DNA of 64,000 nt from a virus (IMGVR_UViG_3300028590_000011:16040-80039), one strand, 5' to 3'. Shown: positions 23,983 through 45,278, counted from the first letter of the stretch. Translations and numbers: made by a program. Notes: generated from the letters alone by a model not told the origin.

Positions 23983-24461
23983 TATGCGATCCTCTCACGA
24001 GTCACGTCCGGGTAGCGGGGAACGTTGAACGTCTCGATTGCCATCTGGTTGTGTGTCCAGACATGGCCGCGCGAGAGCACCGAATCCGCGAGCTGACACC
24101 GCCAGTACTCCCGGTACTCGTTGAAGGTCCATCGGATGCGATAGTCCATCTGCTCGAACAGGCTCTGGAGGAACCAGTAGTTGTCCGCCAAGTCAGTCTG
24201 GTCCTCGCCGCCAACCCAGACCGATACGGTCTCCATCACCATGTCCGGAACAGCGTGCACCAGATAGCTACCGCCCAGTACAGGTGACTCAGCGACCGTC
24301 TTGCGCCACGACTTGGCAGACTGCTCGCGGGTCTGGTCAGCGTTGATCCGGAACTTGTCGCCGTCGTTGATGTTGACCCAACGAGAGCCGTAGGACACCT
24401 CGACAGCTAGATAGGACAGCCCCTTGCTCTCAGGGGCGACTACGCCGTACGGGACCTTCAT
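23982..24461 (-). CDS. minor tail protein (distal tail-like)
   Basis: First gene after the tape measure. Confidence 0.6.
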   Translation of the reverse strand: MKVPYGVVAPESKGLSYLAVEVSYGSRWVNINDGDKFRINADQTREQSAKSWRKTVAESPVLGGSYLVHAVPDMVMETVSVWVGGEDQTDLADNYWFLQSLFEQMDYRIRWTFNEYREYWRCQLADSVLSRGHVWTHNQMAIETFNVPRYPDVTRERIA

Positions 24462-27400: not shown

Positions 27401-29887
27401 GGCATAGTCACCCACCAGCTTCACGTCAGTCGCGTCAGCCAGACCAGTAGCGGCACCCTTGGACGCTTCCAGGTCGGCATACTGAGCGTTCGCCTTGTCG
27501 AAGGCTTCCTCAGAGTCGGACTTCCCGAACAGCCCTTCGACCATGTTCTTGGCGTTGGCAGCTGACGCGGTGAAGTTGGTGAACGCGGAGTGCCACTTGG
27601 CTCCGTCAGAGAGCTTGTCGCTGAGCTTGTTGTACTCCTCCAGCATGTCGTCGTAAGACGAGTCGAGCTCAGCCAGGGAGTCGCTCTTGCGCTGCACCGT
27701 ATCGAAGGTCTTAGCGGCTTCCTCGAAGTCGTTGTTGGTCTTCGAGGCATCCATCACCAGACCGACGCCAGCACCGATACCAGCACCCCAAGGGCCAGCC
27801 ATGCCACCCATCAGACCCATGGCCAGGGTGTTCTGGAGACCGGTGTTAGCGCCAGCGCCAGTCATCAGCAGACCAGCACCAGCAGCCATGCCGATGTTGC
27901 CCCAGCCGATCTTGTTGCCGACTGCGCCGATACCGCCACCAATGACGCCCGCGCCCAAGCGCGCGGTGTTGAGCGCAGCCGAGGACATCGCCGCAGCGAG
28001 CGTTCCCGAGGAGCGCGTGAGGTTAGCGAACATCCGGGAGAGAACGCCGCTCTCACGCGAGACAGCAGTAGTAGCGGACGCTCGCGCAGCAGCCGCAGCA
28101 GCCTCACTGGCGTACTGGCCACCGGGCATACGCGGACCTTCGTATCCCTGTCGGGAGTACATCCGCTCGTTGAAGTCGATCCGACCCTGGTTGAACCACT
28201 GGAACGGAGCCGAGCCCAGGAACCGAGGCGAGTCGAACATCCGTATCCGGCGAGTCGGGTCGTTGTAGCCCGCAACACCCAGCGGGGAGTAGATCGGCGC
28301 GAGAAGGTTGCGCATACCCCATGCCGCCACGTTCCCCGGCATAGCCGCAGCGCGCTGCCACAGCGGCGGACCGCCGCCCGGAGGCAGCAGACCAGAGGTG
28401 CCACGCCCCACTACGTTCCCAGCGTTGTAGCCCATCCGCTGTAGCCAAGAACCGTTCGCGGCTACCTGCTGCCCAGTAGTGCCCATCGGTCCAGCACCAC
28501 CGACTGAGCCCATACCCGCTCGTCCCTCCAGGAACCCGCGCATGGGAGAGCCACGTAGCACCATGGCACCAAGGGCGAGCTTGGAGAGCGCACCAGCCAT
28601 CAGCAGCACGCTGCCCGCGAATGCAGCGGCGGCTCCAGCGCCGGTACCGAGGAAGGTCATGAACGCCCCGAAGGGTCCCTGCATGAGTTCGTTCAACCCA
28701 CTGGTGAGCGAGCCGACCCCTTGCAAGATCTTGGTCACCATCTCCGCGAAGGGCTTGCCGATCTCCTCAGCGATGGAGGCGATGTCCGAGCGAATGTTCT
28801 GGAGTTCGTCCACCATCCCCTTCATGGAGGCGGCAGCGCCCTTGCCAGTTGCGTCTGAGTCGAAGCCCATCTGCGACTCACGGATAGCGTCTCGGATACC
28901 ACCACCAGACTGAGACATCAGCGCGGTCATCGTGCGGACGGTTCGCATACCGTCCAGACCCATCCGGTTCAGGTCAGTGATGACCTTGGGGCCACCAGCG
29001 GAGATGGCCTCCATCACCTTGATGATCTGCTCAGAGCCTTCGAGCGACTTGAACTGCTCGACGGTCATGTTGACGAGGTTCGCGTACTTGCTCAGCTCCG
29101 GAGATCCGGTCTGCGCAGCGTAGGCGATGTTGGTCGTCAGCTGAGAGAAGGTGTTGGCGGCGGCGTAGCCGTCCTGACCGGCCTTGGCGAAGGCGGTGGC
29201 CATGCCAGTGACTTGAGTCTGGTTCAGCTCCAGCAGTCGCCCGACCGGGGCGAGTTGTGCGGTGAACTCAGCGAGACCCTGAGCGGAGAGGTTGGTCTGC
29301 TGCGACAGGTAGGTGATCTGGTCGGCGTACTTCTTGGTAACGCCAGAGCCAGCGGTGTTGGTCCCCATGATCTTCTGGAGGTTCAGCACCGAGGTGGCCA
29401 GTCCAGTCGAGGACTCGCCCGTCGCCTTGGACATGGCAACGAAGGTGTCGGAGGTGGCCTTCAGCTCTCGCTGAGTGTTGCGGCCAGTGATCTTGGAGAT
29501 GGTCTCAACGAGCTTGGAGCCCTCGGAGACCGTGGTTCCGTACGTCTTGCGGAGCCCATCCACCGCAGCGGTGTAGGACTCCATCGTCTTCTTCTCAGCA
29601 TCCCGAGAGCGCGTGACGATGGCTGCCTGAGCCTGGAGCCGAGACATCTGCTGCTCGTAGGCGGCATAGGCAGCAGTGGCGCCGGTGATGATCGCTACGT
29701 CAGCAGCAGCGATCCCCACCAGCTTGCGACCAGCAGACTTGCTGAGGTCGTTGATCTTCTTCGTGAGGGAGTCAACCGAAGCAGCCAGGACATCCGTGGC
29801 GGATGCCGACGACTGCATCGCCTGGTCGTACTGCGTGTTGTTCGCTGTGAGTACGACTTCAGCGTCGATCGGCTGATCCATGTTCAC
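24458..29887 (-). CDS. tape measure protein with C-terminal M23 peptidase domain
   Basis: 1809 aa, Ala/Gly-rich and helical; follows the chaperones; YGN...YAHLS...GQQIGRVGSTGNSSGPHLHFEI; VGEKGPE.VLPL C-terminal motif. Confidence 0.92.
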   Translation of the reverse strand: MNMDQPIDAEVVLTANNTQYDQAMQSSASATDVLAASVDSLTKKINDLSKSAGRKLVGIAAADVAIITGATAAYAAYEQQMSRLQAQAAIVTRSRDAEKKTMESYTAAVDGLRKTYGTTVSEGSKLVETISKITGRNTQRELKATSDTFVAMSKATGESSTGLATSVLNLQKIMGTNTAGSGVTKKYADQITYLSQQTNLSAQGLAEFTAQLAPVGRLLELNQTQVTGMATAFAKAGQDGYAAANTFSQLTTNIAYAAQTGSPELSKYANLVNMTVEQFKSLEGSEQIIKVMEAISAGGPKVITDLNRMGLDGMRTVRTMTALMSQSGGGIRDAIRESQMGFDSDATGKGAAASMKGMVDELQNIRSDIASIAEEIGKPFAEMVTKILQGVGSLTSGLNELMQGPFGAFMTFLGTGAGAAAAFAGSVLLMAGALSKLALGAMVLRGSPMRGFLEGRAGMGSVGGAGPMGTTGQQVAANGSWLQRMGYNAGNVVGRGTSGLLPPGGGPPLWQRAAAMPGNVAAWGMRNLLAPIYSPLGVAGYNDPTRRIRMFDSPRFLGSAPFQWFNQGRIDFNERMYSRQGYEGPRMPGGQYASEAAAAAARASATTAVSRESGVLSRMFANLTRSSGTLAAAMSSAALNTARLGAGVIGGGIGAVGNKIGWGNIGMAAGAGLLMTGAGANTGLQNTLAMGLMGGMAGPWGAGIGAGVGLVMDASKTNNDFEEAAKTFDTVQRKSDSLAELDSSYDDMLEEYNKLSDKLSDGAKWHSAFTNFTASAANAKNMVEGLFGKSDSEEAFDKANAQYADLEASKGAATGLADATDVKLVGDYATQMQKLDEVIMKLKPNMDELGITFEDLKQAFVASQADMDNPAVQGLLGLMGGGKYNADDYQKMIDQITSPGKSTGLWDRIARTNYTGATFMGSQDVKSALALPEDVNLQYRAINSTYSRLLRDGATPLGVVRQSGDVLAQGMTADDPEYILNQAILDKAKQTLGYQQPFMGRSAGYQQQANLFATQANTMAGDPNQMEKMEEAQAGFIQNTMQQVQYFQQLLYQQREFNVSQARAQEDFGRSRARMDEEYGISRRRAQADFHLQRMYQEQDYQLSRRRAEEDYNLSRERGQYQFTLSMTRGQEDFNTSRLRQEQDYNHQVVLMAEQAAQQMYNIYERMRVQRTSSASYMLVNAQDQLEQMRNQSSNLDRVRGMGLSDDAIQQLGLTDSNNAQQLSRFVAEAANNPQIIEQFNTAIKERLGAARELVTDESSKDWEEFQRQYELSRTRATADFEKSVKRARKDFRLQMQQMEDDFQKSMSRSATDYETAQERQQKAFSLSMSRGAEDYGRAVRNMSTDFATSMARAKEDMDRMAEEISGSMTEILVRATKELNGKSATQARLVLGTFSKLRTELGVEGNDIMTQLAEIFGFKYTPVENPGGGRRTNKFEYDMGPGGRKYADGGVLPGRSIGRDDMHFFSPKHGALSLAGGEAIMVPEWVDQVGGPQAVKKMNEMARRGFAAGGTIPAVGGWHQHEGGYPWARWAGDINVPGSGDYGNPVRSYKDGVIALVNRWNYSYGNHIRVNHPKTDEQTLYAHLSAISVKPGDSVVRGQQIGRVGSTGNSSGPHLHFEIMGGTGPVMLGSGAAGVAIGMSLADVLKDEYPNVERAAGKVKIGGGFERGSWSNALNRMAKLGYRHYTSPNPDNHEPLSWYGHGGIFADPNIIGVGEKGPEMVLPLDDRGAMFIADIMQKMHVGSEGKASHLTGGTPIVTHTINTYQIDRSTTFSGNITVAANNPAEFIQQMQQRQRIQALSQAALGGKR

Positions 29888-32361: not shown

Positions 32362-32774
32362 CGCTCGACCGCCTTCACGTTGTACCTGCGCGTGGCTCGG
32401 AGCTCACCAGCACGAGCCGAGGAGATGATCTCGAACCGCTTGCCCAGCATCGAGGTGTCCTGTGTGGGCGCGTAGGTGATCACGATCTGATCGTTCTTGC
32501 GCAGGATCGGGGAGTTCCAGGGCAGCGAGAGCTGGACGTTCTGGACCATGATGTCGGTCTCTCCGAGCATCACAGCGCCTGCTCCCTGGATCTCCCAGAT
32601 CCTGCACGGGGAGTCCTCGATGATGAGGGTCCGAGAAGTAGCCGGGATGGTCAGGTCGTCTCCATCCTCGAAGTCCACACGCGTCAGGCGCTCTGCATCG
32701 CAGCGGTACTCCATGACCGCCGTGGCACGAGAGCGCACATAGTTGCGCGCGCGAGGAGAGATGGGAGAGGCCAT
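32358..32774 (-). CDS. head-to-tail stopper
   Basis: Synteny; CRI...QLSLP...NDQIVI pattern. Confidence 0.65.
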   Translation of the reverse strand: MASPISPRARNYVRSRATAVMEYRCDAERLTRVDFEDGDDLTIPATSRTLIIEDSPCRIWEIQGAGAVMLGETDIMVQNVQLSLPWNSPILRKNDQIVITYAPTQDTSMLGKRFEIISSARAGELRATRRYNVKAVER

Positions 32775-32992
32775 CAGATCATTCCTGTTACGGCTCGTCC
32801 GAGCGTGCGAGCGACACCGAGAGTGGGATGTTGCGGACTGAGAGTGCCGATCTTGTTAGCAACCTTCACGGTCGTCAGCTGTCGCCGCGTGACCGCCTTG
32901 CGCGCTCCAGCCTTGTGCTTGGGGTTGACGACCTTGGGCTGGAGTAGCGCCTTGGAGACCTCGCCATGGTCTACTCCGAAGGCGCTGATCAT
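32774..32992 (-). CDS. small basic protein with N-terminal SAFGVDHGEVSKA tag
   Basis: Motif shared with four other head-region ORFs. Confidence 0.75.
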   Translation of the reverse strand: MISAFGVDHGEVSKALLQPKVVNPKHKAGARKAVTRRQLTTVKVANKIGTLSPQHPTLGVARTLGRAVTGMI

Positions 32993-33204
32993 CAGGACGC
33001 CAGGAGACCGGCTGCCCGCAGCGAGGCGAGCAGGGCGTTGACCTTGGCCACCGTGGTCGGCAGGTCAGCACCGCCAGCGAGGTTGGCCACCGCAGCAGCG
33101 GGCTCCAGGTTCAGCGGAGAGTCCGAGTCCGCCAGAGCGAGAGCAATGGGGCGCGGGACCTCCAGAGACCGGAGTGCGTCGTACTTGTCCTTGTCGTATG
33201 CCAT
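32992..33204 (-). CDS. head fibre-like small protein
   Basis: C-terminal AKVNALLASLRAAGLLA motif typical of head fibre proteins. Confidence 0.6.
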   Translation of the reverse strand: MAYDKDKYDALRSLEVPRPIALALADSDSPLNLEPAAAVANLAGGADLPTTVAKVNALLASLRAAGLLAS

Positions 33205-33205
33205 C

Positions 33206-33682
33206 TCAGACTCCTGGGTTCTCTTCCGGGTAGTACTCGGGGAAGTCCTGGCTGCCGTAATCCTGGCGACCAGCGGACTTGTCGTCGTGCATCCCCGTGC
33301 CGAACGCGAAGGGCTTGATCTCTGGGTGCGTCCCCTCGTAGGGGGAGACGCCGCCCACGTCTGGGAACCCCCCTACGAGGGAACTCTTGTGCTGCTCCCG
33401 GAGGGAAGCAGCGAGTTCACGGAACTGCTGGGCTACCGCTCCGAGGTTGATGGAGACGCCATCCGCGCTGTACGACACCTCGCGCGCGTACCGAGCAGCC
33501 AGGGAGTCCGCGATGGCCGCAGCCACGAACTCCAGGGTGCCGTACAGCGGCTTCCACTTGGAGATCATGTAGTTGATCTCCTCGTCCTGCGCGAACCACT
33601 CAGAGTCCGCGCCGGTGTCCTGGATCAGGAACCGGACTACGTCCTTGTCAGTGGCCAGCGAGGGGTCGTATGAGGTGGTCAC
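33206..33682 (-). CDS. head-to-tail adaptor
   Basis: D.VRFLI.DT.......DEEI.Y...AA.IA..LAA.YA motif. Confidence 0.8.
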   Translation of the reverse strand: MTTSYDPSLATDKDVVRFLIQDTGADSEWFAQDEEINYMISKWKPLYGTLEFVAAAIADSLAARYAREVSYSADGVSINLGAVAQQFRELAASLREQHKSSLVGGFPDVGGVSPYEGTHPEIKPFAFGTGMHDDKSAGRQDYGSQDFPEYYPEENPGV

Positions 33683-34020
33683 AGCTTCGTCTCGGTCTTG
33701 TTCTTCTTGCGGCCGGACTTCCAGGTGCTGTAGCCAGCACCGCCCAGCACAGCGGCACCGGTGACAGCAGGCTTCGCTGCCACAGCCTTGCCAGCGAGCT
33801 CAGCGACACGACCGACTCCACGACCGACATCAGCGACGCTCACCTTGGCGTTGGCAGCCTTGCCAGGGATCGCGGTCAGCTTGCCGAGGCGAGCCTTGTT
33901 CCGGGCGTAAGCAGCCTGCTGGTTGGCGCGCACGTTGGCCTTGTGCTGCGCCTTACGACGACCAGCGGGGGTCAGCGCCTTGGAGACTTCTCCATGCTCG
34001 ACCCCGAACGCGCTCTCCAT
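33679..34020 (-). CDS. small basic protein with N-terminal SAFGVEHGEVSKA tag
   Basis: Start MESAFG at 34020, just after the upstream stop. Confidence 0.8.
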   Translation of the reverse strand: MESAFGVEHGEVSKALTPAGRRKAQHKANVRANQQAAYARNKARLGKLTAIPGKAANAKVSVADVGRGVGRVAELAGKAVAAKPAVTGAAVLGGAGYSTWKSGRKKNKTETKL

Positions 34021-34021
34021 G

Positions 34022-34348
34022 TCAGGCCCCCTTCTTCCGGTTGGCGTAGACACCACCGGTCAGACCGACAGCGCCGCCGCCAATGACAGCCTTGCCGGTA
34101 GTCGTGCCCGCGAAGCCCTTGGCGCTGTTGCCAGCGGCACCAGCGAAGGACTTGGCCTTCTGGCCCATGGTCGACTGGAACGCCTTACGAGCGCCACCAG
34201 CAGGCGCGCCAGGCTTCTTCTGAGCACCAGTCATGGACTGCTGCCCCAGCCTCTTCAGGTTGCCGCCCATGGCGCTGACCTTGCCCGTGGGCATGGAGAA
34301 GGCCTTGGAGACCTCACCGTGCTCTACTCCGAATGCGCTCTCAGACAT
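34022..34348 (-). CDS. small basic protein with N-terminal SAFGVEHGEVSKA tag
   Basis: Start MSESAFG at 34348 overlapping the upstream stop. Confidence 0.8.
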   Translation of the reverse strand: MSESAFGVEHGEVSKAFSMPTGKVSAMGGNLKRLGQQSMTGAQKKPGAPAGGARKAFQSTMGQKAKSFAGAAGNSAKGFAGTTTGKAVIGGGAVGLTGGVYANRKKGA

Positions 34349-35051
34349 TGTCGAGGATGCCCTTCCGCTTCTTGTTGGCCTGCTCCACAGCCACCACGCG
34401 GTTGTACTCCTCTTCGGAGATGTCGCTCGCGAGGTAGTCCATGACCTCATCCACGGTGTGCTCCGTGGGGTCGTAGAGGTCTTCCTCAGTGATCACCGGC
34501 TCGTCATCTTCGAGATCCTCGCCCTCAGAGACGACGTTCTGTCGTTCTCCGGATAGAGCAGCGGTCTCTTCAGCAACAGGGTCGTCGCCACTCTCGTCGC
34601 CAGGGACAGTGTCGTCCCCATCGAGAACATCATCAGATCCCTCTGCGTTCTCGTCATCCAGCACCTTCTCCGTCAGGGCGTTGGCGTGAGCCTCGGCCTT
34701 CAGAGCAGCGGCGACATCCTGGTCCTCGTACTTCTTCGCCGGGGTGGTCTCCACCGACGGGAACGTGAGGTCATGCTGCTTCGGCTTGTTGTACGCCGAC
34801 TCACCCAGCGCAGTGCCGAGCTTGGCGTCGATGACTTCCCGAGACCAGACGTGGTGGTGCCAGTGGCGCGGCTGGTCAGCGGGGTCATCGACCACCGCGA
34901 AGAGACGCCGCGTACGGATGAGCAGATCGATACGACCGGTGGCCTCGTCCTGAGGGAACTCTTCCCCCATCGAGTAGTCCTTACCGGCGTACGTGAAGTT
35001 GCGAGCGCAGATGAAGTACACCGCGCCGTTGTTGTAGAGCTGGGACGGCAT
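34341..35051 (-). CDS. capsid-region hypothetical protein with acidic linker and C-terminal helical module
   Basis: Follows major capsid gene; C-terminal TVDEV..YL...E..RV..VE.ANKKRKGIL. Confidence 0.7.
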   Translation of the reverse strand: MPSQLYNNGAVYFICARNFTYAGKDYSMGEEFPQDEATGRIDLLIRTRRLFAVVDDPADQPRHWHHHVWSREVIDAKLGTALGESAYNKPKQHDLTFPSVETTPAKKYEDQDVAAALKAEAHANALTEKVLDDENAEGSDDVLDGDDTVPGDESGDDPVAEETAALSGERQNVVSEGEDLEDDEPVITEEDLYDPTEHTVDEVMDYLASDISEEEYNRVVAVEQANKKRKGILDNV

Positions 35052-35071
35052 CTCTATCTCCTCAGATAGTG

Positions 35072-35105
35072 AGAGGGGGCCAGGGACTACTCCCCAGCCC
35101 CCTCT
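35072..35105 (-). terminator. stem-loop after the major capsid gene
   Basis: agagggggc ... gccccctct inverted repeat. Confidence 0.55.
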
Positions 35106-35121
35106 ACAGGTAACGCGTGGA

Positions 35122-36120
35122 TCAGGCGACAGCGTCCGCGAGGAAGATGCCCATGTCGGGGGAGACGACCTTCATGTCGTAGGTCATCTCGCCCTCGATG
35201 CGGTCCGAGGCGATGTGCTCCATCCGGAAGTTCTTCATCCGGATGCCGTAGCTGTTGCCAGCCAGATAGCCGTTCCAGGTGAAGATGTAGCCCGAAGCAG
35301 GAGTCATCAGCGACGGAGACGACGGCGTGTAGCACAGGAGCGCGCTCTTCGAGTTGCTCATGAAGCTGTACGACGCGGCAGCGTCCTGGGTGTCAGCGTC
35401 GTTGCGCTCAGCGACATCCGTGAAGGAAGCGTACGAGACCAGGATCTTCTCCACGTCGAAGAGCGACGCGAGGAGGTCGGTGGTCACGACACCCTTCTGG
35501 GTGTACTTGATCCGGTCGATGATGTCCGGGTGGTTCTTCAGCGAGGTGATCGCCTCAGCACCGAGGACCAGGGTGTTGGCCTTCCGACCAGACTGGAGGA
35601 CGAAGTCCGTCTGGAGGTTGGCGAACTGCACGATCGGGTCCGACGCGGCGTCGTTCCACTGGAGGAACTGCGAGCCAGACGGAGCGGCAGCAACACCAGC
35701 AAGGTCGGTGCCCCAGACACCGGTCTTGAAGTAGGCGTTGTTCCAGTCCAGGTCACGCTTCAGCAGGAGCTGGTTGGTGACGAACTTGGTCGCGTCCTTG
35801 TCCAGGCTCCAGTTGGAGTCGGCGTTGGCACGGGTCTGGTCGTCCAGGTCCTTGTGGACCGCGTACACCTGCGCGTAGTAGGTGTCCGTGTCGACCTTGT
35901 AGCCGATACCAGCGGACTCGGTACCCGGCGCACGCTTCTGGACATCGGTCCGACGCCAGTCGGACTTGCTGTACTTCCAGAAGAGGTCCGACTGCTTCTG
36001 CACCGGAACTCGCGGGAAGACCTTGTCAGCGATGAACGTCGCAGTGTCCTGCATGTACGCCACGCTGACGTTGGTCAGCGGTGCGTTGACGTGGAGATCG
36101 CTCTGAGTCGGGTTAGGCAT
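35122..36120 (-). CDS. major capsid protein
   Basis: LTNVSVAY.Q...FIADKVFP.VPV.KQS...RAPG...L..HP.I.DRIKY; GpE-like capsid family; synteny. Confidence 0.9.
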   Translation of the reverse strand: MPNPTQSDLHVNAPLTNVSVAYMQDTATFIADKVFPRVPVQKQSDLFWKYSKSDWRRTDVQKRAPGTESAGIGYKVDTDTYYAQVYAVHKDLDDQTRANADSNWSLDKDATKFVTNQLLLKRDLDWNNAYFKTGVWGTDLAGVAAAPSGSQFLQWNDAASDPIVQFANLQTDFVLQSGRKANTLVLGAEAITSLKNHPDIIDRIKYTQKGVVTTDLLASLFDVEKILVSYASFTDVAERNDADTQDAAASYSFMSNSKSALLCYTPSSPSLMTPASGYIFTWNGYLAGNSYGIRMKNFRMEHIASDRIEGEMTYDMKVVSPDMGIFLADAVA

Positions 36121-36135
36121 AGCTCGCTCCTCCTA

Positions 36136-36552
36136 TCAGAGCTGGATCAGAAGGAGAACCGAGATCAGCTCTCCAGCGTTGGCAACGGACGAGACCGCCA
36201 CACCGACGCAGAGACCGCCGCCGCCAGTGGCGTCAGTGGCCTGTCCGTCAGCAGAGACGAAGACCTTCTCGCCAGCGTCGATGGCCTTGTCAGCCACCAC
36301 CTTGCTGACACCTCGGATACCGACAGTGGCAGCGCCACCCGTGACCTGAGGCTTGTTCTGCACGACACCGATCACGCCGGTGTCGTCCGCGTCCGCGAGA
36401 CCGACCTGATGCGCGCCGGTCACCTTCACGAAGTGGTACTGCTTACCACCGTTGGGCGAAGCGCTGCCAGGCTGGCCGGGGACGCCGGTGTACTGCGCCA
36501 GGGTCGCATCCGCGTTAAGCGTGATGGACCGGAGGCTCTCCTCGTACGCCAT
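36136..36552 (-). CDS. capsid decoration/cement protein
   Basis: QYHFVK...IGVVQNKP..G.AATV...GVSKV.A...I.AG..V....DG.A motif; upstream of capsid gene. Confidence 0.75.
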   Translation of the reverse strand: MAYEESLRSITLNADATLAQYTGVPGQPGSASPNGGKQYHFVKVTGAHQVGLADADDTGVIGVVQNKPQVTGGAATVGIRGVSKVVADKAIDAGEKVFVSADGQATDATGGGGLCVGVAVSSVANAGELISVLLLIQL

Positions 36553-36575
36553 GAGATTCCCTACCCTTCCTTATC

Positions 36576-37370
36576 TCAACGTCCCCGCGAAGCGAGGTAC
36601 TCGTCGTATGCCTGCGGGTTGTCGTCCAGGACATTCACGATGTCCGTGGCACCAGCGGACTTGCCGATCGTCTCCGAGGCGTAGGCGGTCACAGTGTCCA
36701 TGACATCGGCGTTGTCGCCGCCGCCCCGGTAGCCGACCTCCTGGAAGAGAGCCTCACCGGCAGTCTCCAGGCACTTGGCGATGACCGCGCAGTCCTCGTA
36801 GCTCATCGTCTCGGCCATCCGATACAGGACCGGGCCGAGCTCCTCACCGGAGACCGGGAGGTTGTAGCTGTCCGCCTTGGAGATGTACTCGCGGGTCAGG
36901 CGCAGGTCACGCTCGGCCTTGGCAGCCTTGGCGATCTCCTGGGTCTGCTTCTCCAGCTCGTCCACTCGGCCGAGCGCCTTGGAGATGATCTTGTCGCGGT
37001 CCTCGTCGCTGAACGCCTTCGACAGCTCTTCGAGCACCGACTGGGCGAATCCGCCCTTGGGGGCCTGGGTCTGGTCGAAGAAAGCCGACTTACCAACGGT
37101 AGCCAGTTCCTTGTCCTCGACGTTCTCCTCCTCCGTCAGGGTGAACTCGTAAGCGTTCCCCTCGGAGTCGTATACGACCTGGCCGTCCTCCAGGGTCTCC
37201 TGGTCCAGGGCCTTGCCGTTCTCATCGAACAGGTCGATCTCTGCGGGCATGTTGTCCTCCTCAGGAGCCCTCTTAGCGATGGTGATCATTGCGTGCTGAT
37301 TGGCACCCTTGTCGACCAGAGAGATCTCATCGATCTCCATGTTGGTCAGGTTCTTAATCGGCTTCGGCAT
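36576..37370 (-). CDS. scaffolding protein with N-terminal EISLVDKGAN protease-like segment
   Basis: Acidic and helical; upstream of decoration and capsid genes; many [IVL]xK[AS] motifs; start 37370-37379. Confidence 0.75.
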   Translation of the reverse strand: MPKPIKNLTNMEIDEISLVDKGANQHAMITIAKRAPEEDNMPAEIDLFDENGKALDQETLEDGQVVYDSEGNAYEFTLTEEENVEDKELATVGKSAFFDQTQAPKGGFAQSVLEELSKAFSDEDRDKIISKALGRVDELEKQTQEIAKAAKAERDLRLTREYISKADSYNLPVSGEELGPVLYRMAETMSYEDCAVIAKCLETAGEALFQEVGYRGGGDNADVMDTVTAYASETIGKSAGATDIVNVLDDNPQAYDEYLASRGR

Positions 37371-37410
37371 CTCCATCAACCTCTGTTCTTAGTCTCGGGT
37401 GTACGTCTAG

Positions 37411-38184
37411 TCAGTCATGAACGATGCCGAAGGCCGACTCGTTCGAGCTCTTCTTGAAGTTCTGGCGACGGCGCTGGTTGATCTTGTGTTGCTGATAGGT
37501 GTGCTGTCCCTTGGCCCCCGCGCCAACAGCGGCAGCAGTTCCAACGAGAGCGGCTCCACCCACGCCAGCGGCTACGGTCTTCTTGGCCTTCGCTGCGCCA
37601 GAGACGATCTTCCCAGCAGACTTAAGTCGTCCACCGGCCTTCAACCCCATCGTCCTGTTCACGCGGTCAGCGGTCTTCAGGTTGCTACCGAGACGCTTGA
37701 AGGACTTCGAGTCGCTGTTATACGCCGCAGCAGTGACACCAGCACCGAGAGCAGCACCAGCGCCAGCTGCGCGCATCACCTTGCGATCTCTGCGCTGAGT
37801 CTGTTCCCGCTGATCGATCGTCTTCCAGTTCCCGAACTTGGAGATCTCGAAGGGGTCGTTCTTCTTCACGGGAGTCCTCTTCCTCGACTCAGCATTGGTG
37901 TACGCGGCGAAGTTGTAGCCGCCCACACCGCCGATGCCACCAGAGACCACACCGATGTTCTTAGCCTGGTCTCCAATCTTGTTGCCGACAGCCTTGACTT
38001 GGTTGTCGGTCCGTCCGGAGTACTTGGGGATCTTGCGCAACATCCCCGGCTTCTTCTTCAGAGCAGCACCAGCACCCAGTAGTCCCAGACCAGTCAGCCC
38101 CAATGTGGAGGTGGTCTGGGAGATGTGTCCTTGGACCTTCTTGCGGCGCTTGATCTCCGCGTCGCTCATGATCCGGTTAGCCAT
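37411..38184 (-). CDS. basic Gly-rich two-module protein with C-terminal SAFGIVHD tag
   Basis: Translated sequence. Confidence 0.75.
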   Translation of the reverse strand: MANRIMSDAEIKRRKKVQGHISQTTSTLGLTGLGLLGAGAALKKKPGMLRKIPKYSGRTDNQVKAVGNKIGDQAKNIGVVSGGIGGVGGYNFAAYTNAESRKRTPVKKNDPFEISKFGNWKTIDQREQTQRRDRKVMRAAGAGAALGAGVTAAAYNSDSKSFKRLGSNLKTADRVNRTMGLKAGGRLKSAGKIVSGAAKAKKTVAAGVGGAALVGTAAAVGAGAKGQHTYQQHKINQRRRQNFKKSSNESAFGIVHD

Positions 38185-39040
38185 GGTCTACCCCGAACGC
38201 GCTCATGGTGTCCGACTTGGAGATGCCGCGCTTCTTCCGGCTGTGGTGCACCGCAGCAGTCGCGCCAGCAGCCCCCAGGCCCAAGGTGATGGCTCCACCG
38301 GACTTGCCGGTGTGTGTCACGGCGAGCGTCCGCTTCATCTTCCCGCCAGGCAGATCCTTGGGGTAGTTGCGGAAGAACTGCCGGAACCGAGGATCGCCAG
38401 CGGTCATCCCCTTCGGGCGGTACTTGTCCTCATGCGCCTTCATCTTCTTGCGCATCCCAGGGTTCGACTTGATCTTCTTCTCGTTCTTCCAGTCGAGGGG
38501 CTTGGTAGCCATCACCCCACCCTGGTATCCGAGCATGGCTCCAGCACCACCGGCGTACGCAGCCGTGGTGTCCTTGCGGTCCATCGCCTTGCCGAACTTC
38601 TCGTTCTTCTTCGCCTGGTGCATGGCACCGGCGTACGACAGTGGCAGGCCCACGCCTACAGCGCCCAGCCAGAGTTTCGACTGCTTGGGGTAGACCTTCG
38701 GCTTGATCGCCCTGCGCGCGACCTTCAGATCGTTCAACTTGCGGTACCCAGCCTTGCGCTCAGCGCGGAGTGCTTCCTTCGCAGCGGGCTTGTGCCGGTT
38801 CAGGGTCGAGTCACCCTTGCGGTTCTCCTGCTGCCACGAGCCCCGAGCAGGTCGCTTCGGGATGGCTGCCTCAGCACGGGCGATCTTCTTGTCCGCAACG
38901 TTCTGTCGTACCGCGATGGTCTTGCGCTCGACCCGAGAGACAGCAGGAACACCCAGCGCCATCGCGCCGCCACCCACAGCAACAGCAGCGCCACCGTGGG
39001 TCTTCTTGTCCTTCTGCTTCCGGAACTCCTCGAAGTCCAT
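38177..39040 (-). CDS. basic Gly-rich two-module protein with C-terminal SAFGVDHG tag
   Basis: Start MDFEEFRK at 39040 with GGAG RBS. Confidence 0.75.
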   Translation of the reverse strand: MDFEEFRKQKDKKTHGGAAVAVGGGAMALGVPAVSRVERKTIAVRQNVADKKIARAEAAIPKRPARGSWQQENRKGDSTLNRHKPAAKEALRAERKAGYRKLNDLKVARRAIKPKVYPKQSKLWLGAVGVGLPLSYAGAMHQAKKNEKFGKAMDRKDTTAAYAGGAGAMLGYQGGVMATKPLDWKNEKKIKSNPGMRKKMKAHEDKYRPKGMTAGDPRFRQFFRNYPKDLPGGKMKRTLAVTHTGKSGGAITLGLGAAGATAAVHHSRKKRGISKSDTMSAFGVDHG

Positions 39041-39041
39041 G

Positions 39042-40007
39042 TCACTCTCCCATCGGTGTACGCATCCCGCGCCCGTGGATGGAGAAGCCGGTGCGCTCAC
39101 CGTTCTTCACCTTGCTCCACAGTTCGGGGTCGTTGATCTGGTAGCCAACCCACCAGCCAACCGGCATCTCCTCAGGGAGACCCAGCGCCTTCTTCTTCTC
39201 CGGGGTCACTACAAAGGACTCGATCATGTCCGACTTGTGCACCGGAGCATCACCGTCGCGTAGGTGCATGTCGCCACCCTTGCGGGACTTGTGCACGTAC
39301 TCGTACGCGGACTTCTCTACCTCGCTGATGGAGATGTAGTCGCCCTGGAGATCGACCACTGGCTCGCCGTTCATCTCCACGATGGAGGCCCAGCCGAAGA
39401 CCTGCTGCTTGTCGGAGTCGACCTTGGAGATCTCACCCTCCCAGCGCACGTCGAACTCATCAGCCTTCTTGGAGACCTGGGACTTCAGCCGGATCATCCC
39501 CTGCTTCGTCCCGCACTTGACCTTGGTCTCGACATGGTTCCCAGCCTTGGTGAGCACCTTGCGCTTCAGGGCACCGGTGGAGATGTGCAACTCCGACTGA
39601 TCCGGGCTGGCCTTGTGGACCCTGGCCTTCTTGGGCTTGCTCGATGCAGAACGTGCGAGCACGCGGTTGGCGACAGCGTCTCCGGCGATGTTAGCCACCT
39701 GGAGACCGAGAGCGCCACCAGCCAGCGCTGCGCCCGTCTTACCAGCCTTGGACGAGATCGGCTTCGGGATCTTCTGACCCGTCGCGTAGATCTTCCGAGA
39801 GAGCTTCCCGCCCTCCTTGAACCGGTCGTCGCGCAGAGCGGCAGCAGTACCAGCCACACCCGCACCGAGGCCAACGATGTTCGAGGCGAGACCCACCTGG
39901 GCCTGTCGCTTCTCGCGCTTGGCCTGAGCGTCCATCTTGGCCACAAGGTCGTCAGCGCCGCCTCCATACAGAAGGTTCGCTACCTCACGGAACGCATCAG
40001 TGCTCAT
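39042..40007 (-). CDS. capsid maturation protease (XkdF-like serine protease) with N-terminal basic Gly-rich module
   Basis: QQVFGWA...DLQGD.I...E.EK.AY...DMH...IES...P.GWWVG......W..VK.GE.TGFSIHG; likely start 40007. Confidence 0.85.
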   Translation of the reverse strand: MSTDAFREVANLLYGGGADDLVAKMDAQAKREKRQAQVGLASNIVGLGAGVAGTAAALRDDRFKEGGKLSRKIYATGQKIPKPISSKAGKTGAALAGGALGLQVANIAGDAVANRVLARSASSKPKKARVHKASPDQSELHISTGALKRKVLTKAGNHVETKVKCGTKQGMIRLKSQVSKKADEFDVRWEGEISKVDSDKQQVFGWASIVEMNGEPVVDLQGDYISISEVEKSAYEYVHKSRKGGDMHLRDGDAPVHKSDMIESFVVTPEKKKALGLPEEMPVGWWVGYQINDPELWSKVKNGERTGFSIHGRGMRTPMGE

Positions 40008-40029: not shown

Positions 40030-42012
40030 CTACTCATCGTGATCACCGAACTCCTCCATCTCCACGTCCGGGAGTGCATCGAACACCGGGAAGAAGAACC
40101 GGTTGTTCGCGGTGCCTACGCGCTGCTTGGTGTCTTCCAGTACGTAGTCGCCTTCGGTGACCCAACTCTCCAGCCCGTTCCGAGTCGGAGCATCAGCCTG
40201 GTAGGTCCTACCCAGCGAGGAGTCATGACCCTCGTCCAAGCGCAGGACCATGAAGGTCAGGTTGTCTGGGTTGACCCCCCACTCCCGAGCCAGTTCGCCG
40301 TAGGTGATCTGGTCAGGCATCTTGTAGTCAGGAACTCCACCTTCAGTGGTGTACCAGTCCAGGTTGATCTTGGTGTTCTCGCCAGTCCAGTCCGGGTCGC
40401 CGTTGGCGTTCCCAGAAGCGATGGCTTCTACCAGAGCGAAGATGTCATCATCCTCGATGAAGGCGTGGTACTTGTTGCCGTCCTCGCCGTACATCTCGAC
40501 CATGCCGCCCGTGTGGTCCTTGATGGACTCGTACTCGTCCATGATCGCCTCATCGAGGCGCTGCACTGCTCGCTCTGCGATCAGCACCTCGTCCGGGCTC
40601 CACACTATGCTGCTGTTGGCGTTCAGGTAGTCGTTGTAGGTGCTCAACTCATGCGGCGTGACGACTGTGTACACGGGGTACTGCTTGCCGTTCTCAGACT
40701 GGATCTTGACCGTAGGCGAGTAGAAGACTCGGTTCCTCGGCTTCTCCAGCGCCTTCAGTCGAACCAGGTCACGGGCCACATCCTCGGTCAGCGCCAGCTT
40801 CTGGAGCGGAGGCATCCCCAATCGGGTCTTGGTCTGCTCCTCGCGACCGAGTGAGACCTTCTCCGCAGTCTTATCGCTCAGCGAGACATGTTCGATCGGA
40901 GTCAGACGGACCTTTCGCTGAGGAGACAGACGAACTTTGCGATCCTCAGAGAGCCGTACCTTCTGCTCCGGCTCCAGCCTGACCTTCTCCTGCTCTCGGA
41001 TCACCGGCTCAGCGTCGCGCACGCGCTGCGCTTCTCCTACCAGGTTGTCCAGGAAGGCCGAAGGCTTGTCCTGGGTCTTGACCGCGAACCGTCCGTCCGA
41101 GGTGCGCTTGTACTCGTCGTCGTACCAGCGATCCGCCTTGGAGACGATCGGGTCTACAACCTTCACCTCGCACCGGCAGTTGGGGTGAACACCGGGAACC
41201 CACATCTCGATCTTGTTGGGCAGCACGAAGCGCTCGCTGACGCCCACTCGCTTGCCGTGCATCGGGCCGCAGATGGCGCAGGTCTTCTCGTCCTTGGCCG
41301 TCAGCCAGACCTTCTCGGCCTCAGCTGAGAGAGCCCCGTGATCCTGCATCCAGAGCCACGCCGTCTGCTTCGCCTGGAGGTCGAGGTTGTGAACCTCCTG
41401 CTTAGCGAACACCTTCAGGCGGCTCCTGATGGAGCGACCGATGTACTCCCTGACCATCTGCTTGGCAGACATAGGCTGCGCGCTGGTGATCTTCTTCTTC
41501 ACGTCCAACGCAACGTAGCCACTCATCTGGCGAGGAGTGAGCCCGTACGCGTCCAGCGCCCGGTCCGCAGCAACGCGGACAGGAAGCTGACGATTGACGA
41601 AGGAGTTGAACCCCTGGAGCAGCGCGTCCTTGGAGGTGGCATCGAAGTACTCACCGATCCGGCGAGTGTGCTGCTCAGCCAGTGCGTAGATAGTCGTCAT
41701 TGGCACATCGCCAGCGCCAGCAGCGCGGTACGCGCGCACGTACGCCTCAGCAGCAGCCGGACCGAGGATCGCGTTCTTCCGACCCAGGAACAGAGCCGAA
41801 GCCTGGTCCAGGAGAGCCACCAGTCGAGATCCAGTGATCTCTGGCTCCTTGGCGATCTGCTCCTTGATGTAGTTGATGACCAGCAACCGGTGCGACATCA
41901 GTGCCGAGTGGATCATCTCCTCCAGGCTGCCGAGGTGCTTCTCGTCTGCACGCTTCAGAGCCCCCACCGCAAGGTCAGGGGCTAGAAGCTCTACATAGGG
42001 AGCAGTGGTCAC
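40030..42012 (-). CDS. MuF-like minor head protein with long C-terminal extension
   Basis: KVWLTAKDEKTCAICGPMHG...HPNCRC. Confidence 0.85.
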   Translation of the reverse strand: MTTAPYVELLAPDLAVGALKRADEKHLGSLEEMIHSALMSHRLLVINYIKEQIAKEPEITGSRLVALLDQASALFLGRKNAILGPAAAEAYVRAYRAAGAGDVPMTTIYALAEQHTRRIGEYFDATSKDALLQGFNSFVNRQLPVRVAADRALDAYGLTPRQMSGYVALDVKKKITSAQPMSAKQMVREYIGRSIRSRLKVFAKQEVHNLDLQAKQTAWLWMQDHGALSAEAEKVWLTAKDEKTCAICGPMHGKRVGVSERFVLPNKIEMWVPGVHPNCRCEVKVVDPIVSKADRWYDDEYKRTSDGRFAVKTQDKPSAFLDNLVGEAQRVRDAEPVIREQEKVRLEPEQKVRLSEDRKVRLSPQRKVRLTPIEHVSLSDKTAEKVSLGREEQTKTRLGMPPLQKLALTEDVARDLVRLKALEKPRNRVFYSPTVKIQSENGKQYPVYTVVTPHELSTYNDYLNANSSIVWSPDEVLIAERAVQRLDEAIMDEYESIKDHTGGMVEMYGEDGNKYHAFIEDDDIFALVEAIASGNANGDPDWTGENTKINLDWYTTEGGVPDYKMPDQITYGELAREWGVNPDNLTFMVLRLDEGHDSSLGRTYQADAPTRNGLESWVTEGDYVLEDTKQRVGTANNRFFFPVFDALPDVEMEEFGDHDE

Positions 42013-45000
42013 TGGGACTTCCGCTTGTCGGCGTACATCTCCATGGTGAGCCTCTCGGCTTCCTTGACAGTGTCAGCCCCGCCGAACACACCGCCACGGA
42101 GGTCTTCCACATCCTCATGCGACTTCACTCGCTGCCGCTCATCGTGCAGAGCCTGAGCGGCGATGTAGAGAGTGTCAGCAGCGTTGTCGTTACCCAAGTC
42201 GGCGTAATACTGAGCAGCCTTCTCGAACTCGCTGATGAGCGTCGACACTCGACCCTGGGGCCGGAGCTTCTCCTCAGCGGTCACAGGAGCGTTTCGGATG
42301 ACGATGTCTCCCGACTCCTGGCGCATGGTCCCCTCAGGGCCCTGTCCGTCCTTCAGCGCGCGCATCCGGTGCACCGTCTCCAGTTGCGCGGTGATCTGCT
42401 TCGGGTCAGAGACCAGTCGGGTCACGACCGGCGAGTTACGCACGACCTGGAGATCACGAAGCAGTTCCACACGGTCCATCGCAGGCAGGTCGTCCGGACC
42501 CTGACCGAGGAAGGTACGCATCTCCTTCAGGACGTTGTACTCGTCCTTCAGCTCAGCCTCGTTCATCTCAGAGAGTGGCTTGTCGTGCCGTACGCCACCC
42601 GAGTCGATCTTCTTCATCTCGGCCATCCGAGCGCTCAGATCAGCACCGGTCTCGTAGGCAGCACCAGAGAAGGCGAAGGGCTTGTCGCCCCAGACCCCAG
42701 CCACATCAGCGCCGTACTCCTTGCGACCGACATGACCAGCAGCCACCTTGTACGCTGCACCAGCCTCACCGAGCCTGACGTTGGCGCTAACTGCGCGCGA
42801 CACCAGCGAGTCGAACTTGGCCTGGTTCTCCGGCTGGGCCAGCTCCTCCGGGGTGAGGTTGAGAAGCTTGGCCTCTTCCTCGTTCGGCTCGATCCGGTCC
42901 TTCAGCACAGCCTGCACAGAGACCGCAGCCTCCGCGTAGTTCTGCGCCGCACGGCGCTCAGCCACCACGCTCTTGACCGACTTCTTCTGCTCACCGGTGG
43001 GGTTGAGCTGGAAGTTCTTCGCATCGAAGGGAGCAGGGCCATCCGGTGAGGGAGCGCCCCGTCGCGGACCACCGCTACCCCGACCACCCTGGTAGTCGGC
43101 CTCAGATGCCGAGAACTTCCCACCAACCATGGTGGGGTTGCGCTTGGCGTTACCGAACAGACCAGCGGCTGCGTAGGTCGGGCGGTTGCGTCCCGGCTCC
43201 ACGTAACCACGGTCGAGCGAGGTCTCCATGCGGTCCATGTGACGACGCGGGACAGCGTTGGCGTCCTTGATGTAGTACGGGAACTGCTCCTGGAGCGCGA
43301 TGAGGGCAGCCTTGTAACCCTCGCCGTTCAGCCGGTACTTGTACTCCTTCTCGGCGGCGAGTTCGTTCATCACGTCGCCCATGAAGTCGTCCGCGTCCTT
43401 GCCCTGCGAGCCCTGAGCGCGCTGAGTAGCGATGAACCGGGCCAGCCGCTCGTCGTGGTCGCTCAGTTCCGGAGACGACTTGAACTCGTCCACGCGGCGG
43501 TTGATCTCGGTCTGGATGTCCTTACGCGGGGCGTACCCGCCCATCTCCTCCATGACCTCGGTCTTGATCGCCTCGCGGATCTCCGGGTTGAGAGACATCC
43601 GATCGACCTGCTCCGACTGCACTGCGTCGAGGAGCTGCTCATAGCGCCGAGTCATCCGGCGAGCTTTGTCGTTGTAGCGACGACCACCGGTGAAGTCCTG
43701 CTCGAACTCCATGGTGAAGACACCCGAACGAGAGACCACCGTGACCTGGCGAGCACCAGACATGAGACCGGTGTAGACATCCTCGGAGGTGAGGCCACCG
43801 ACAGAGCGGTTGCGGATGTACTCCCCGCCCTTCAGACCCTTCAACTTGCGGAGGTTGAAGGGCAGATAGTGGTCGTCTCCATAGCCCACGGCCTGGTCTA
43901 CGACCTTGCCGTCCTTGTCGATGATCACGCCCTCAGACGGAGGGGTGTTGCCCGAAGCGAGCTGGAGGTCGTAGAGCTTCTGGCTCGGAATCCTCCGCGA
44001 CAGGTACTCGACCGCCACCGCCCGACCGTTGGCTCGCTCCTCCCAGGTAGGAGCGCGTCGCTCAGCCGAGATGCGGGCAGCAGCCATCTGCACCGGCGAG
44101 AGTTCCTGCGGGCGCTTCAGGTTGGCCTTCTTACCCTCCGGGGTGTTCCGGTACGGGTCGTTGGCAGTGGCCAACTTCGCATCGCGCATGGCGCGGTCCA
44201 CAGCACCGACGACCACCTTGTCCGGGGTCTTGGAGGTGCCCCGGTAGCGGTAGGCGGTCTTACGCGCCGAAGGGCCGAAGACAGCCTCAGCCTCCGAGCC
44301 ATGGTCACCGACGAACTGAGCCATCCGCGCTGCGAGCTGAACCTTGGACCCAGCCGGAGCGATCTCGCCGACGATCTTGGAGCCAGCGGACAGTCGTCCG
44401 TACAGACGCGCGTTCGAGTCCCGGCCGTCTACCTGCTGGTTCCAGTCCTGCTCGAAGGATCCGAAACCGGAGTCGACAGCGTTGATGCCGCGCATGGTCT
44501 CGTAGCGCTGCTTGGAGCCGTCCGCGCCCAGAGAAGTAGACAGACCGAAGTACGCCCCACCAGCGGTGAGCGCGTTCGGACGCGCATCCAGACCCACCAG
44601 GTCCTCGTGCTTGGGGTCCCACATCTTCGGGTCCGGTCGCGTCGAGGAGGTAGTGACGGTGTACACCTGGCCGTTGTGCTTGTTCCGGATGTGGGCGATC
44701 ACGTCGCTGTCGCCGGGGTTGCGAGAGGACGCGTGAACGGCCCCGAGGAAGTTGGTCAGCTGCCGGTACTGGTCCTGGTAGGCAGCAGCACGACGCGGCG
44801 GGAGACCCTCGACATCCTTGCCATGCGGGAGCCCCATCGACTCAGCCGTACGCCCCTTGATGGGCTTCACCTGAGAAGTGGTCACCTTGGCCCGGAACCG
44901 ACCAGTGCCGGGGTCACGGCTGAAGTCGGACTCCTTGAACCGGTAGCCGTAGTCGTACGGGGTCGCCTTGGAGATCTCCGAGAGAGCCTTGGCGAACTCC

Positions 45001-45278
45001 ACAGCGCCGTCCGTGTCCTTGGCAGCAGCACGCATCGTGGCGCGCTTCAGCACCTCCACGCGCTTGGAGATGACCTTGTTCAGGTGACGCTGGAGAACGG
45101 GCAGATTCTTCTCGATCGTCTCTTCGACCATGTCGTTGGCGACGTGGTAGCAGAACTCGCGAGCCTCTTCCTCGTCCATCTTCATGATGAGGTCGTAGAC
45201 CTTCTGGGCAGCCTTGTAGTTGAAGTCCGGGTTGTCGGACTTGAAGATCGAACCGCGCTCGATCGGCGTGAGAGTCAC
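42009..45278 (-). CDS. large head-associated protein (1089 aa) with degenerate JAB-like domain
   Basis: Between portal and MuF; RDPGTGRF motif; JAB-like segment. Confidence 0.7.
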   Translation of the reverse strand: MTLTPIERGSIFKSDNPDFNYKAAQKVYDLIMKMDEEEAREFCYHVANDMVEETIEKNLPVLQRHLNKVISKRVEVLKRATMRAAAKDTDGAVEFAKALSEISKATPYDYGYRFKESDFSRDPGTGRFRAKVTTSQVKPIKGRTAESMGLPHGKDVEGLPPRRAAAYQDQYRQLTNFLGAVHASSRNPGDSDVIAHIRNKHNGQVYTVTTSSTRPDPKMWDPKHEDLVGLDARPNALTAGGAYFGLSTSLGADGSKQRYETMRGINAVDSGFGSFEQDWNQQVDGRDSNARLYGRLSAGSKIVGEIAPAGSKVQLAARMAQFVGDHGSEAEAVFGPSARKTAYRYRGTSKTPDKVVVGAVDRAMRDAKLATANDPYRNTPEGKKANLKRPQELSPVQMAAARISAERRAPTWEERANGRAVAVEYLSRRIPSQKLYDLQLASGNTPPSEGVIIDKDGKVVDQAVGYGDDHYLPFNLRKLKGLKGGEYIRNRSVGGLTSEDVYTGLMSGARQVTVVSRSGVFTMEFEQDFTGGRRYNDKARRMTRRYEQLLDAVQSEQVDRMSLNPEIREAIKTEVMEEMGGYAPRKDIQTEINRRVDEFKSSPELSDHDERLARFIATQRAQGSQGKDADDFMGDVMNELAAEKEYKYRLNGEGYKAALIALQEQFPYYIKDANAVPRRHMDRMETSLDRGYVEPGRNRPTYAAAGLFGNAKRNPTMVGGKFSASEADYQGGRGSGGPRRGAPSPDGPAPFDAKNFQLNPTGEQKKSVKSVVAERRAAQNYAEAAVSVQAVLKDRIEPNEEEAKLLNLTPEELAQPENQAKFDSLVSRAVSANVRLGEAGAAYKVAAGHVGRKEYGADVAGVWGDKPFAFSGAAYETGADLSARMAEMKKIDSGGVRHDKPLSEMNEAELKDEYNVLKEMRTFLGQGPDDLPAMDRVELLRDLQVVRNSPVVTRLVSDPKQITAQLETVHRMRALKDGQGPEGTMRQESGDIVIRNAPVTAEEKLRPQGRVSTLISEFEKAAQYYADLGNDNAADTLYIAAQALHDERQRVKSHEDVEDLRGGVFGGADTVKEAERLTMEMYADKRKSQ

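Follow-up and report, generated by a model that had tools for sequence, protein, structure and literature searches.

To our knowledge, the route by which passenger proteins enter the heads of tailed phages has been worked out in only a handful of cases, chiefly T4 and its giant relatives, and the signals used there are N-terminal. The capsid targeting sequence (CTS) of T4 is an N-terminal propeptide of 10–20 residues that binds the prohead core, directs internal proteins to it and is then cleaved off by the prohead protease (PMC7411985, PMC3012670). Head proteins of giant phages carry N-terminal propeptides on the cargo and a C-terminal propeptide on the protease (SPN3US gp245), which the prohead protease cuts off and which are believed to guide the proteins into the prohead (PMC7411985). 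Encapsulin targeting peptides, which are C-terminal or, in some cargo, N-terminal, load unrelated cargo into a shell of the HK97 fold (PMC8346489). Here we describe a peptide tag, SAFG[VI]xH[GD], that is shared by five proteins encoded in the head module of a siphovirus-type virus record. The window analyzed is a stretch of 64,000 nucleotides that corresponds to bases 16040–80039 of the 80-kb record IMGVR_UViG_3300028590_000011, which is judged to be 99% complete, and all genes discussed are on its minus strand. Different from the T4 leader, which is N-terminal only, the SAFG tag is N-terminal, C-terminal or internal, with three N-terminal and two C-terminal copies in the window. On balance, we favor reading it as a CTS-like docking tag for the prohead that functions irrespective of position and can be excised.

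A degenerate DNA pattern for S-A-F-G-[VI]-x-H matched the window exactly five times, always on the minus strand and in frame (32966–32986, 33994–34014, 34319–34339, 37417–37437 and 38183–38203), and did not match any of 100 dinucleotide-preserving shuffles of the window. No sixth copy was found anywhere in the whole 80-kb record. Translation confirmed the claim of the initial annotation that five head-region proteins carry the tag, of which three start and two end with it. The three N-terminal copies follow M-x or M-x-x in small basic proteins. They are N72 (32774–32992, 72 amino acids (aa), isoelectric point (pI) 11.9) with the leader MISAFGVDHGEVSKA (32948–32992; MI-SAFGVDHG-EVSK/A, where the slash marks the putative cut), N113 (33679–34020, 113 aa, pI 10.9, Gly/Ala-rich) with the leader MESAFGVEHGEVSKA (33976–34020; ME-SAFGVEHG-EVSK/A) and N108 (34022–34348, 108 aa, pI 10.7, Gly/Ala-rich) with the leader MSESAFGVEHGEVSKA (34301–34348; MSE-SAFGVEHG-EVSK/A). 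The other two copies are the last residues of the basic proteins C257 (37411–38184, 257 aa, pI 11.0) and C307 (38177–39040, pI 10.6, Gly/Ala-rich), which end before their stop codons in FKKSSNESAFGIVHD (37411–37458; FKK/SSNE-SAFGIVHD) and ISKSDTMSAFGVDHG (38177–38224; ISK/SDTM-SAFGVDHG), respectively. C307 is probably 287 aa long with an ATG at 39040, one base past the stop of the protease gene, on which the Atlas and database gene calls (P0125) agree. Similarly, database gene calls of 113 aa (P0015) and 257 aa (P0121) match N113 and C257. The start codons of the three N-tagged genes lie 0–8 nucleotides past the stop of the upstream gene; Shine-Dalgarno-like purine runs were found 5' of two of the three, and N72 is coupled to the upstream stop. 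The codons for the tag vary among the copies (GCC/GCG/GCA, GGA/GGG/GGC, GTA/GTC/ATC and CAT/CAC). The initial annotation had also described the rest of the tagged proteins as divergent; this needs one correction, in that the three small N-tagged proteins are alike over ~30–35 N-terminal residues and thus beyond the 8-residue core (8-mer).

The motif search in relatives that had been proposed with the initial annotation showed that the peptide recurs widely. Scanning IMG/VR for AFGV[DE]HG identified 119 loci, many with 2–4 copies. Six-frame analysis yielded 92 unique Ser-preceded tags, of which 71 were N-terminal, 9 C-terminal and 12 classed as internal; after four loci with matches unrelated to the phage family were dropped, 88 tags remained, 8 of them internal. 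The residues S, A, F, G and H were invariant in 88/88 tags, and 61/71 N-terminal tags were exactly M-x-S. Every synonymous codon was used at every tag position, including both Ser codon families (AGY and TCN). Thus, selection acts on the peptide, as had been claimed from the differing codons in the window. As a control, AFGV[DE]HG was matched against bacterial and archaeal genome contigs, where it had 120 single matches, none of which was preceded by Ser or followed by the Lys-containing site that flanks the core, while 84 of the 147 matches in viral contigs were preceded by Ser and 72 of the 147 had the Lys site as well. A reversed-pattern control gave no match. All tag-bearing loci long enough to judge encode homologs of the head or tail proteins of the window, and the capsid proteins of tag-bearing relatives are 54–88% identical to that of the window. 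When 1.84 billion representative proteins were searched exhaustively by HMMER, the profile of the N-terminal tag matched 446 clusters (50% identity) at E ≤ 0.001, nearly all matches beginning at residue 1 of the protein, and a profile of the C-terminal form added ~30 further C-terminal or internal cases. Scanning bacterial and archaeal genome contigs for prophages gave single chance matches only, so no host was assigned, and a full-text literature search for the peptide strings returned nothing relevant.

The range of the tag was determined with 80 loci picked on capsid similarity alone from 534 IMG/VR relatives. At capsid identities of at least 79%, 17/17 loci carried 2–7 tags; at identities of 61–77%, 11/34 loci carried 1–3. 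The number of copies in complete genomes ranged from 1 to 8, and every copy was on the coding strand. Moreover, a sister clade has Trp-type cores, such as SVWGVDHG, SAWGIEHG and SYWGVEHG, with the same hydrophobic-S-K site downstream, and the general form of the core with this clade included is [S/N]-x-[F/W]-G-[V/I]-x-H. Trp-type loci include L274 (6650–7105 and 11076), L279 (6294, 6813 and 11068), L280, L284 and L261–L263. The F/W swap is natural variation that could be used to search for a receptor by co-variation.

The tag is portable among proteins and gene positions. For instance, the N-terminal ~115 aa of C257 belong to a family encoded just 5' of the scaffold gene in relatives, and within this family the tag is at the very C-terminus (the window and L035), near the C-terminus with a tail of 12–43 residues (L042, L110, L115 and L022) or internal, where an N113-like module follows it in frame (L057). 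In other cases, a small N-tagged module continues the reading frame of a preceding protein, and there are polyproteins with 2–3 tags, in which two or three modules are strung together, each opened by ...K-SAFG[VI]EH...K. These C-terminal, near-C-terminal and fusion-junction copies in related proteins bear out the orientation independence and portability put forward in the initial annotation, and its statement that tagged genes are interleaved with head genes extends to the relatives. There, tagged genes do not occur outside the structural block; they share its coding strand and sit at many gene junctions: between the terminase and portal genes, between the portal gene and that of the 1089-aa protein, between the protease and scaffold genes, after the capsid gene, among the neck genes and beside collagen-like genes.

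A Lys-containing site between the tag and the body of the protein, reported earlier for the window, is real there and general across the relatives. In 78 of 79 N-terminal or internal cores, the first Lys lies 3–7 residues downstream. In this downstream site, P3 is I, V or F in 78/78, Ser makes up 68% of P2, and Ala, Gly and Ser predominate at P1'. C-terminal and internal cores have [VYLIF]-x-K upstream, 0–4 residues away, so that internal tags possess a site on both sides (e.g., ...VSK-RDTE-SAFGVEHG-EVSK-L...). The variable spacing between the core and the Lys site argues that they are distinct elements.

Copies of the Lys site are present in proteins that have no core as well. The scaffolding protein (36576–37379), which is acidic (pI 4.3) and has PHROG matches to the scaffold part of protease-scaffold proteins, contains the core-less sites IAK/R, LSK/A, ISK/A, IAK/A and ISK/A. 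The pattern hydrophobic-[SEA]-K-[AGS] was observed 4 times in the scaffold versus 0.29 expected (p < 0.0005), and these sites are conserved in 14–17 of 17 homologs. The I-A-K-R of the scaffold leader is invariant. The head maturation protease (39042–40007, with the start at 40007 being probable) possesses an XkdF-type domain, Peptidase_S78_2 (PF14550, E = 9e-19), in its C-terminal ~125 aa, and 8/8 homologs have a hydrophobic-x-Lys site (QVSK/K in the window) 10–15 residues before this domain. The site divides a basic, Gly/Ala-rich N-terminal part of ~190 aa (pI 10.2) from the acidic XkdF domain (pI 5.2). These N-terminal ~190 residues resemble the tagged passengers and may themselves be a passenger that the protease brings along. 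Furthermore, a VSK/A site is located just past the MuF domain of the MuF-like minor head protein (40030–42012), and the 1089-aa protein (42009–45278) has a conserved hydrophobic-S-K-A (ISK/A) near residue 104. A maturation protease homolog was found in every relative locus covering the region. The family thus has a recurring short site common to the scaffold and other head proteins, together with a protease gene in the same module, which are the two features expected of prohead-protease substrates. Given that core-less copies of the hydrophobic-x-Lys motif sit in the usual substrates of prohead proteases, this motif is probably where the XkdF-type head protease cuts. We found no paper on the cleavage specificity of XkdF-type proteases.

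The N-terminal leader of the scaffold (37224–37349 in the window, 10817–10942 in L002 and 10688–10813 in L001, the window copy on the minus strand) is nearly invariant in the family, with the form E-I-D-E-[IV]-S-[LT]-V-D-x-x-A-N...I-A-K-R. It reads E-I-S-L-V-D-K-G-A-N...IAK/R in the window and E-T-S-G-V-D-H-P-A-H...K/S in the cultured phages Ottawa and ValentiniPuff, the latter form sharing G-V-D-H with the core. The idea that the tag is a copy of this leader is kept only as a lead, as the profile-profile comparison was not significant (probability 4%, 5 aligned columns). The scaffold leader also matches the C-terminal end of Peptidase_S78 weakly (E = 0.05). The N-terminus of the protease, MSTDAFREV..., was rejected as a degenerate tag, because the stretch is not conserved among homologs.

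The proteins that carry the tag are diverse in sequence and uniform in composition. Overall, they fall into at least 55 unrelated sequence groups; the 118 N-tagged database proteins formed 55 clusters (BLAST E below 1e-5). All 118 had a pI above 9 (median 11.6), with 19% K+R, 4% D+E and 29% G+A, compared with a median pI of 5.1 for untagged structural homologs. The pI of C-tagged proteins was 10–11.4, and the five proteins of the window range from 10.6 to 11.9 with 21–38% Gly+Ala. Three Gly/Ala-rich uncharged segments were found in C307 and four in C257; by hydropathy such segments were only borderline transmembrane-like and poorly discriminated from controls. Searches of Pfam and PHROGs identified no family for any of the five tagged proteins of the window. 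In the ESM Atlas, C257 and C307 matched viral hypothetical clusters, with a weak likeness to helical membrane proteins (template modeling (TM) score below 0.5). Recognizable passenger domains were limited to an HNH_3 nuclease in a C-tagged protein of ~445 aa, a KTSC domain with a tag on each side and a GNAT-like mini-domain. A tagged family of ~250–330 aa (L056, L090 and L099, where it is encoded between terminase and portal, and P0019) contains an H-E-x-x-H motif, AHENQHA, which is similar to a zinc-metalloprotease signature; this family had no Pfam or PHROG match. Different from MuF-fused polymorphic cargo, the tagged proteins have no MuF domain, and MuF is encoded by a separate, untagged gene. 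Because nearly all of them are very basic and Gly/Ala-rich, the passengers resemble, from their sequences, DNA-associated internal proteins or core proteins more closely than they do a diverse set of effectors.

The interpretation in the initial annotation, a removable packaging tag analogous to the T4 CTS, is partly supported: the peptide is portable, works in either orientation in the sense of its placement, is confined to the structural genes and is set apart from the passenger by a Lys site that recurs, core-less, in the scaffold and other expected protease substrates. A conserved core, a spacer of variable length, a protease-type site and a diverse passenger follow the logic of a head-targeting propeptide that can be removed. 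Similar to the CTS of IPI–III and Alt (PMC7411985, PMC3012670), the tag is a short leader shared by diverse, often small basic proteins, with a putative prohead-protease site at its edge; in both cases the genes are phage genes expressed with the head genes, and retention in the head with the DNA is proposed. However, T4 is a myovirus in which gp21 cuts a Glu-type site, whereas the site here would be hydrophobic-x-Lys and the enzyme an XkdF-type protease (Peptidase_S78_2) in a siphovirus. The capsid protein here is lambda-E-like with a separate scaffold, and the sequence of the tag is different. The propeptides of giant phages, for which examples have 64–130 residues, differ from protein to protein, whereas here one invariant 8-mer is found at either end. 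Moreover, the T4 CTS is experimentally proven, whereas the SAFG system is known from sequence alone, from which we infer both the cleavage and the encapsidation of the tagged proteins.

If the tag is a CTS-like docking tag, as we favor, [S]-x-[F/W]-G-[V/I]-[D/E]-H-G would be a short docking, or address, element that brings passengers into the assembling prohead, and the separate hydrophobic-x-Lys site would join it to the passenger. After assembly, the XkdF-type protease would cut the Lys site, as it would in the scaffold, and would so remove the tag whether it is N-terminal, C-terminal or between two passengers, internal tags being excised as peptides of 11–17 residues. The passengers, mostly small, extremely basic and Gly/Ala-rich, would then remain beside the DNA inside the head, as internal or core proteins, and would possibly be co-ejected. 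Given that the scaffold, MuF and the protease, which would reach the prohead by routes of their own, share the putative cut site without having the core, the role of the core is most likely not to direct cleavage, and the simplest candidate for that role is docking.

Several observations weigh against this proposal. It names no receptor for the core. Several tags in one polyprotein are more than targeting needs. One complete genome has a single tag. Relatives at 61–70% capsid identity are mostly without the core and yet retain the basic Gly/Ala-rich proteins, some of which have only a bare N-terminal hydrophobic-S-K, such as M-I-V-S-K-R or M-M-S-E-Y-V-S-K-R; assembly in general can therefore proceed without the core. 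The tail and neck or connector proteins examined had no Lys site except for one, 2–3 residues from the C-terminus of a 155-aa protein; not every hydrophobic-S-K need be a cut site. Finally, the family has no member in the phage collection: among cultured phages, the best capsid identity was 45% (ValentiniPuff, Ottawa and others), and C257 had no match even at E = 1. The head regions of ValentiniPuff, Ottawa and others contained neither an SAFG-like tag nor any other shared terminal peptide.

The acidic 236-aa protein (34341–35051, pI 4.2), encoded between the capsid gene and the N-tagged genes, was considered as a candidate receptor. It has a homolog in 17/17 relatives of the multi-tag subclade, but several tag-bearing relatives have no detectable homolog. 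Only 1/34 more distant relatives has one. The protein consists of a conserved N-terminal domain and a C-terminal domain of ~55 residues (phrog_29381), and a role as chaperone or partner of the basic passengers is conceivable.

A bolder form of the docking proposal sees in the tag the first counterpart, in a phage, of the loading peptides of encapsulins. An invariant 8-mer, at either end or internal, would be read by a component of the procapsid, with the capsid protein, scaffold, protease or portal as candidate readers, and excised at the Lys sites; it would load changeable basic core proteins and occasional enzymes and would be reusable for foreign proteins. We advance this form tentatively and would not be surprised to see it fail. 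Similar to encapsulin peptides, the tag is position-independent, and a loose hydrophobic-Gly-hydrophobic pattern, seen by eye only, is common to the family 1 encapsulin consensus SDGSLGIGSLKRS (or TVGSL) and SAFGVDHGEVSKA. However, encapsulin peptides are not excised, and different from the encapsulin shell, the particle here belongs to a DNA-packaging tailed phage with Portal_Mu, MuF, a maturation protease, a terminase, a tape measure and a major tail protein.

The tight linkage of the Lys sites to the core allows another explanation, which we consider rather unlikely: the tag may be a propeptide or protease-recognition element only, and the proteins may enter the head by other means, such as attraction of their charge to the acidic scaffold. 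The core and the Lys site would then form an extended recognition element, or the tag would be a pro-region that keeps basic, possibly DNA-binding or membrane-active proteins harmless until trimming. Through their charge, the acidic 236-aa protein and the scaffold (pI 4.3) could retain basic proteins, and distant relatives retain only an N-terminal hydrophobic-S-K on homologous proteins. However, the scaffold, MuF and the junction in the protease have the Lys site without the core, so that the core is not needed for recognition, and the spacing between core and site varies by 0–4 residues, as expected for two separate elements. In addition, a peptide of 8 residues cannot mask proteins of 60–500 residues.

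The core may also dock to a partner outside the prohead, such as the portal or terminase, a host chaperone or protease (as a degron), or a membrane or secretion factor, in which case the tagged proteins need not be in the virion. The peptide is terminal and invariant like many degrons and docking peptides, some tagged proteins have HNH_3 domains, tagged genes of relatives lie beside the portal and 1089-aa genes or between terminase and portal, and the Gly/Ala-rich uncharged segments could be membrane-active. We nevertheless regard this explanation as improbable: internal copies speak against a strictly terminal degron, the flanking site shared with the scaffold ties the system to head maturation, and the leader, as read directly from the sequences with no predictor, has neither a Sec hydrophobic core nor a Tat twin-arginine motif.

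In adenovirus, the precursors of the core proteins, pVII and pX, are very basic, DNA-associated and trimmed by the virion protease, and pVIc is a released short terminal peptide with a role of its own. By analogy, the released peptide of 11–17 residues could itself be the product here, either a protease cofactor or timer like pVIc or a small effector, with the flanking proteins as its carriers. The 8-mer is more conserved than all its surroundings, internal copies are framed by a putative cut site at either end, some precursors hold 2–3 copies as peptide precursors do, and some phages manage with one copy per genome. The adenovirus proteins, however, come from a virus lineage with no relation to this one, and neither the protease nor the sequence motifs are related. 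Against a peptide product, the putative carriers are conserved families of strikingly uniform composition, the residues after C-terminal cores vary (0–3, or tails of 10–43), so that the released ends would not be uniform, and many relatives with the same protease family do not have the peptide. This explanation is therefore a poor candidate. Lastly, a DNA-level element (a recombination or regulatory site), suggested by the location at gene junctions, or a chance or annotation artefact can practically be dismissed, because the codon data, with all synonymous codons and both Ser families in use, effectively refute the former, every copy lies in the reading frame of the coding strand and none occurs in shuffles or in the reversed-pattern control.

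The order of transcription in the window is portal (45275–47119, Portal_Mu), 1089-aa protein, MuF-like protein, protease, C307, C257, scaffold, capsid cement or decoration protein (36136–36552, Phage_cement_2), major capsid protein (35122–36120, lambda gpE-like, phrog_1005), acidic 236-aa protein, N108 and N113, followed by a 158-aa head-tail protein, a 70-aa open reading frame, N72, the neck proteins, the major tail protein and a tape measure with an M23 domain. The 1089-aa protein, encoded between portal and MuF, is conserved in relatives at 30–48% identity, with conserved blocks such as DDHYLPFNL and YRYRGT; it had no Pfam, PHROG or PDB sequence match and may be a large internal or ejected head protein. 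Just past the VSK/A site of MuF, residues ~337–398 (about 40819–41004) contain about six x-[KH]-V-[RS]-L repeats (EKVRL, QKVRL, RKVRL, RKVRL, EHVSL and EKVSL). The tape measure protein (24458–29887, 1809 aa) possesses Peptidase_M23 at residues 1542–1624 and long Gly/Ala-rich hydrophobic stretches. Located 5' of the probable terminase gene are genes for a 1255-aa protein with Mtd_N (the N-terminal domain of the major tropism determinant), two collagen-repeat proteins and an M15 peptidase; the coordinates of these fiber-like, collagen and M15 genes are 54681–58448, 51333–51953, 61429–62124 and 49352–49876. Fiber-like and lysis genes thus precede the packaging genes in the window, and some relatives have tagged genes beside a collagen-like gene.

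Compared with T4 and the giant phages, what is new here is an invariant 8-mer at either end of a protein or internal, with putative excision sites on whichever side faces the passenger, as well as a different protease family, a Lys-type site and a siphovirus with a lambda-E-like capsid. The tag is a compact signal that is defined by its sequence alone, with terminal or internal use and putative built-in excision sites, and it spans hundreds of protein clusters in an abundant, uncultured, soil-type phage family. If it is a loading tag, it would be a small element for loading proteins, including foreign ones, into HK97-fold siphovirus capsids, and its flanking motif would be the first candidate cleavage specificity for XkdF-type head proteases. 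The finding further draws attention to a group of extremely basic, Gly/Ala-rich proteins of the head module. For this family, a loading tag would provide a rule by which the packaged proteome of these phages can be read from their genomes.

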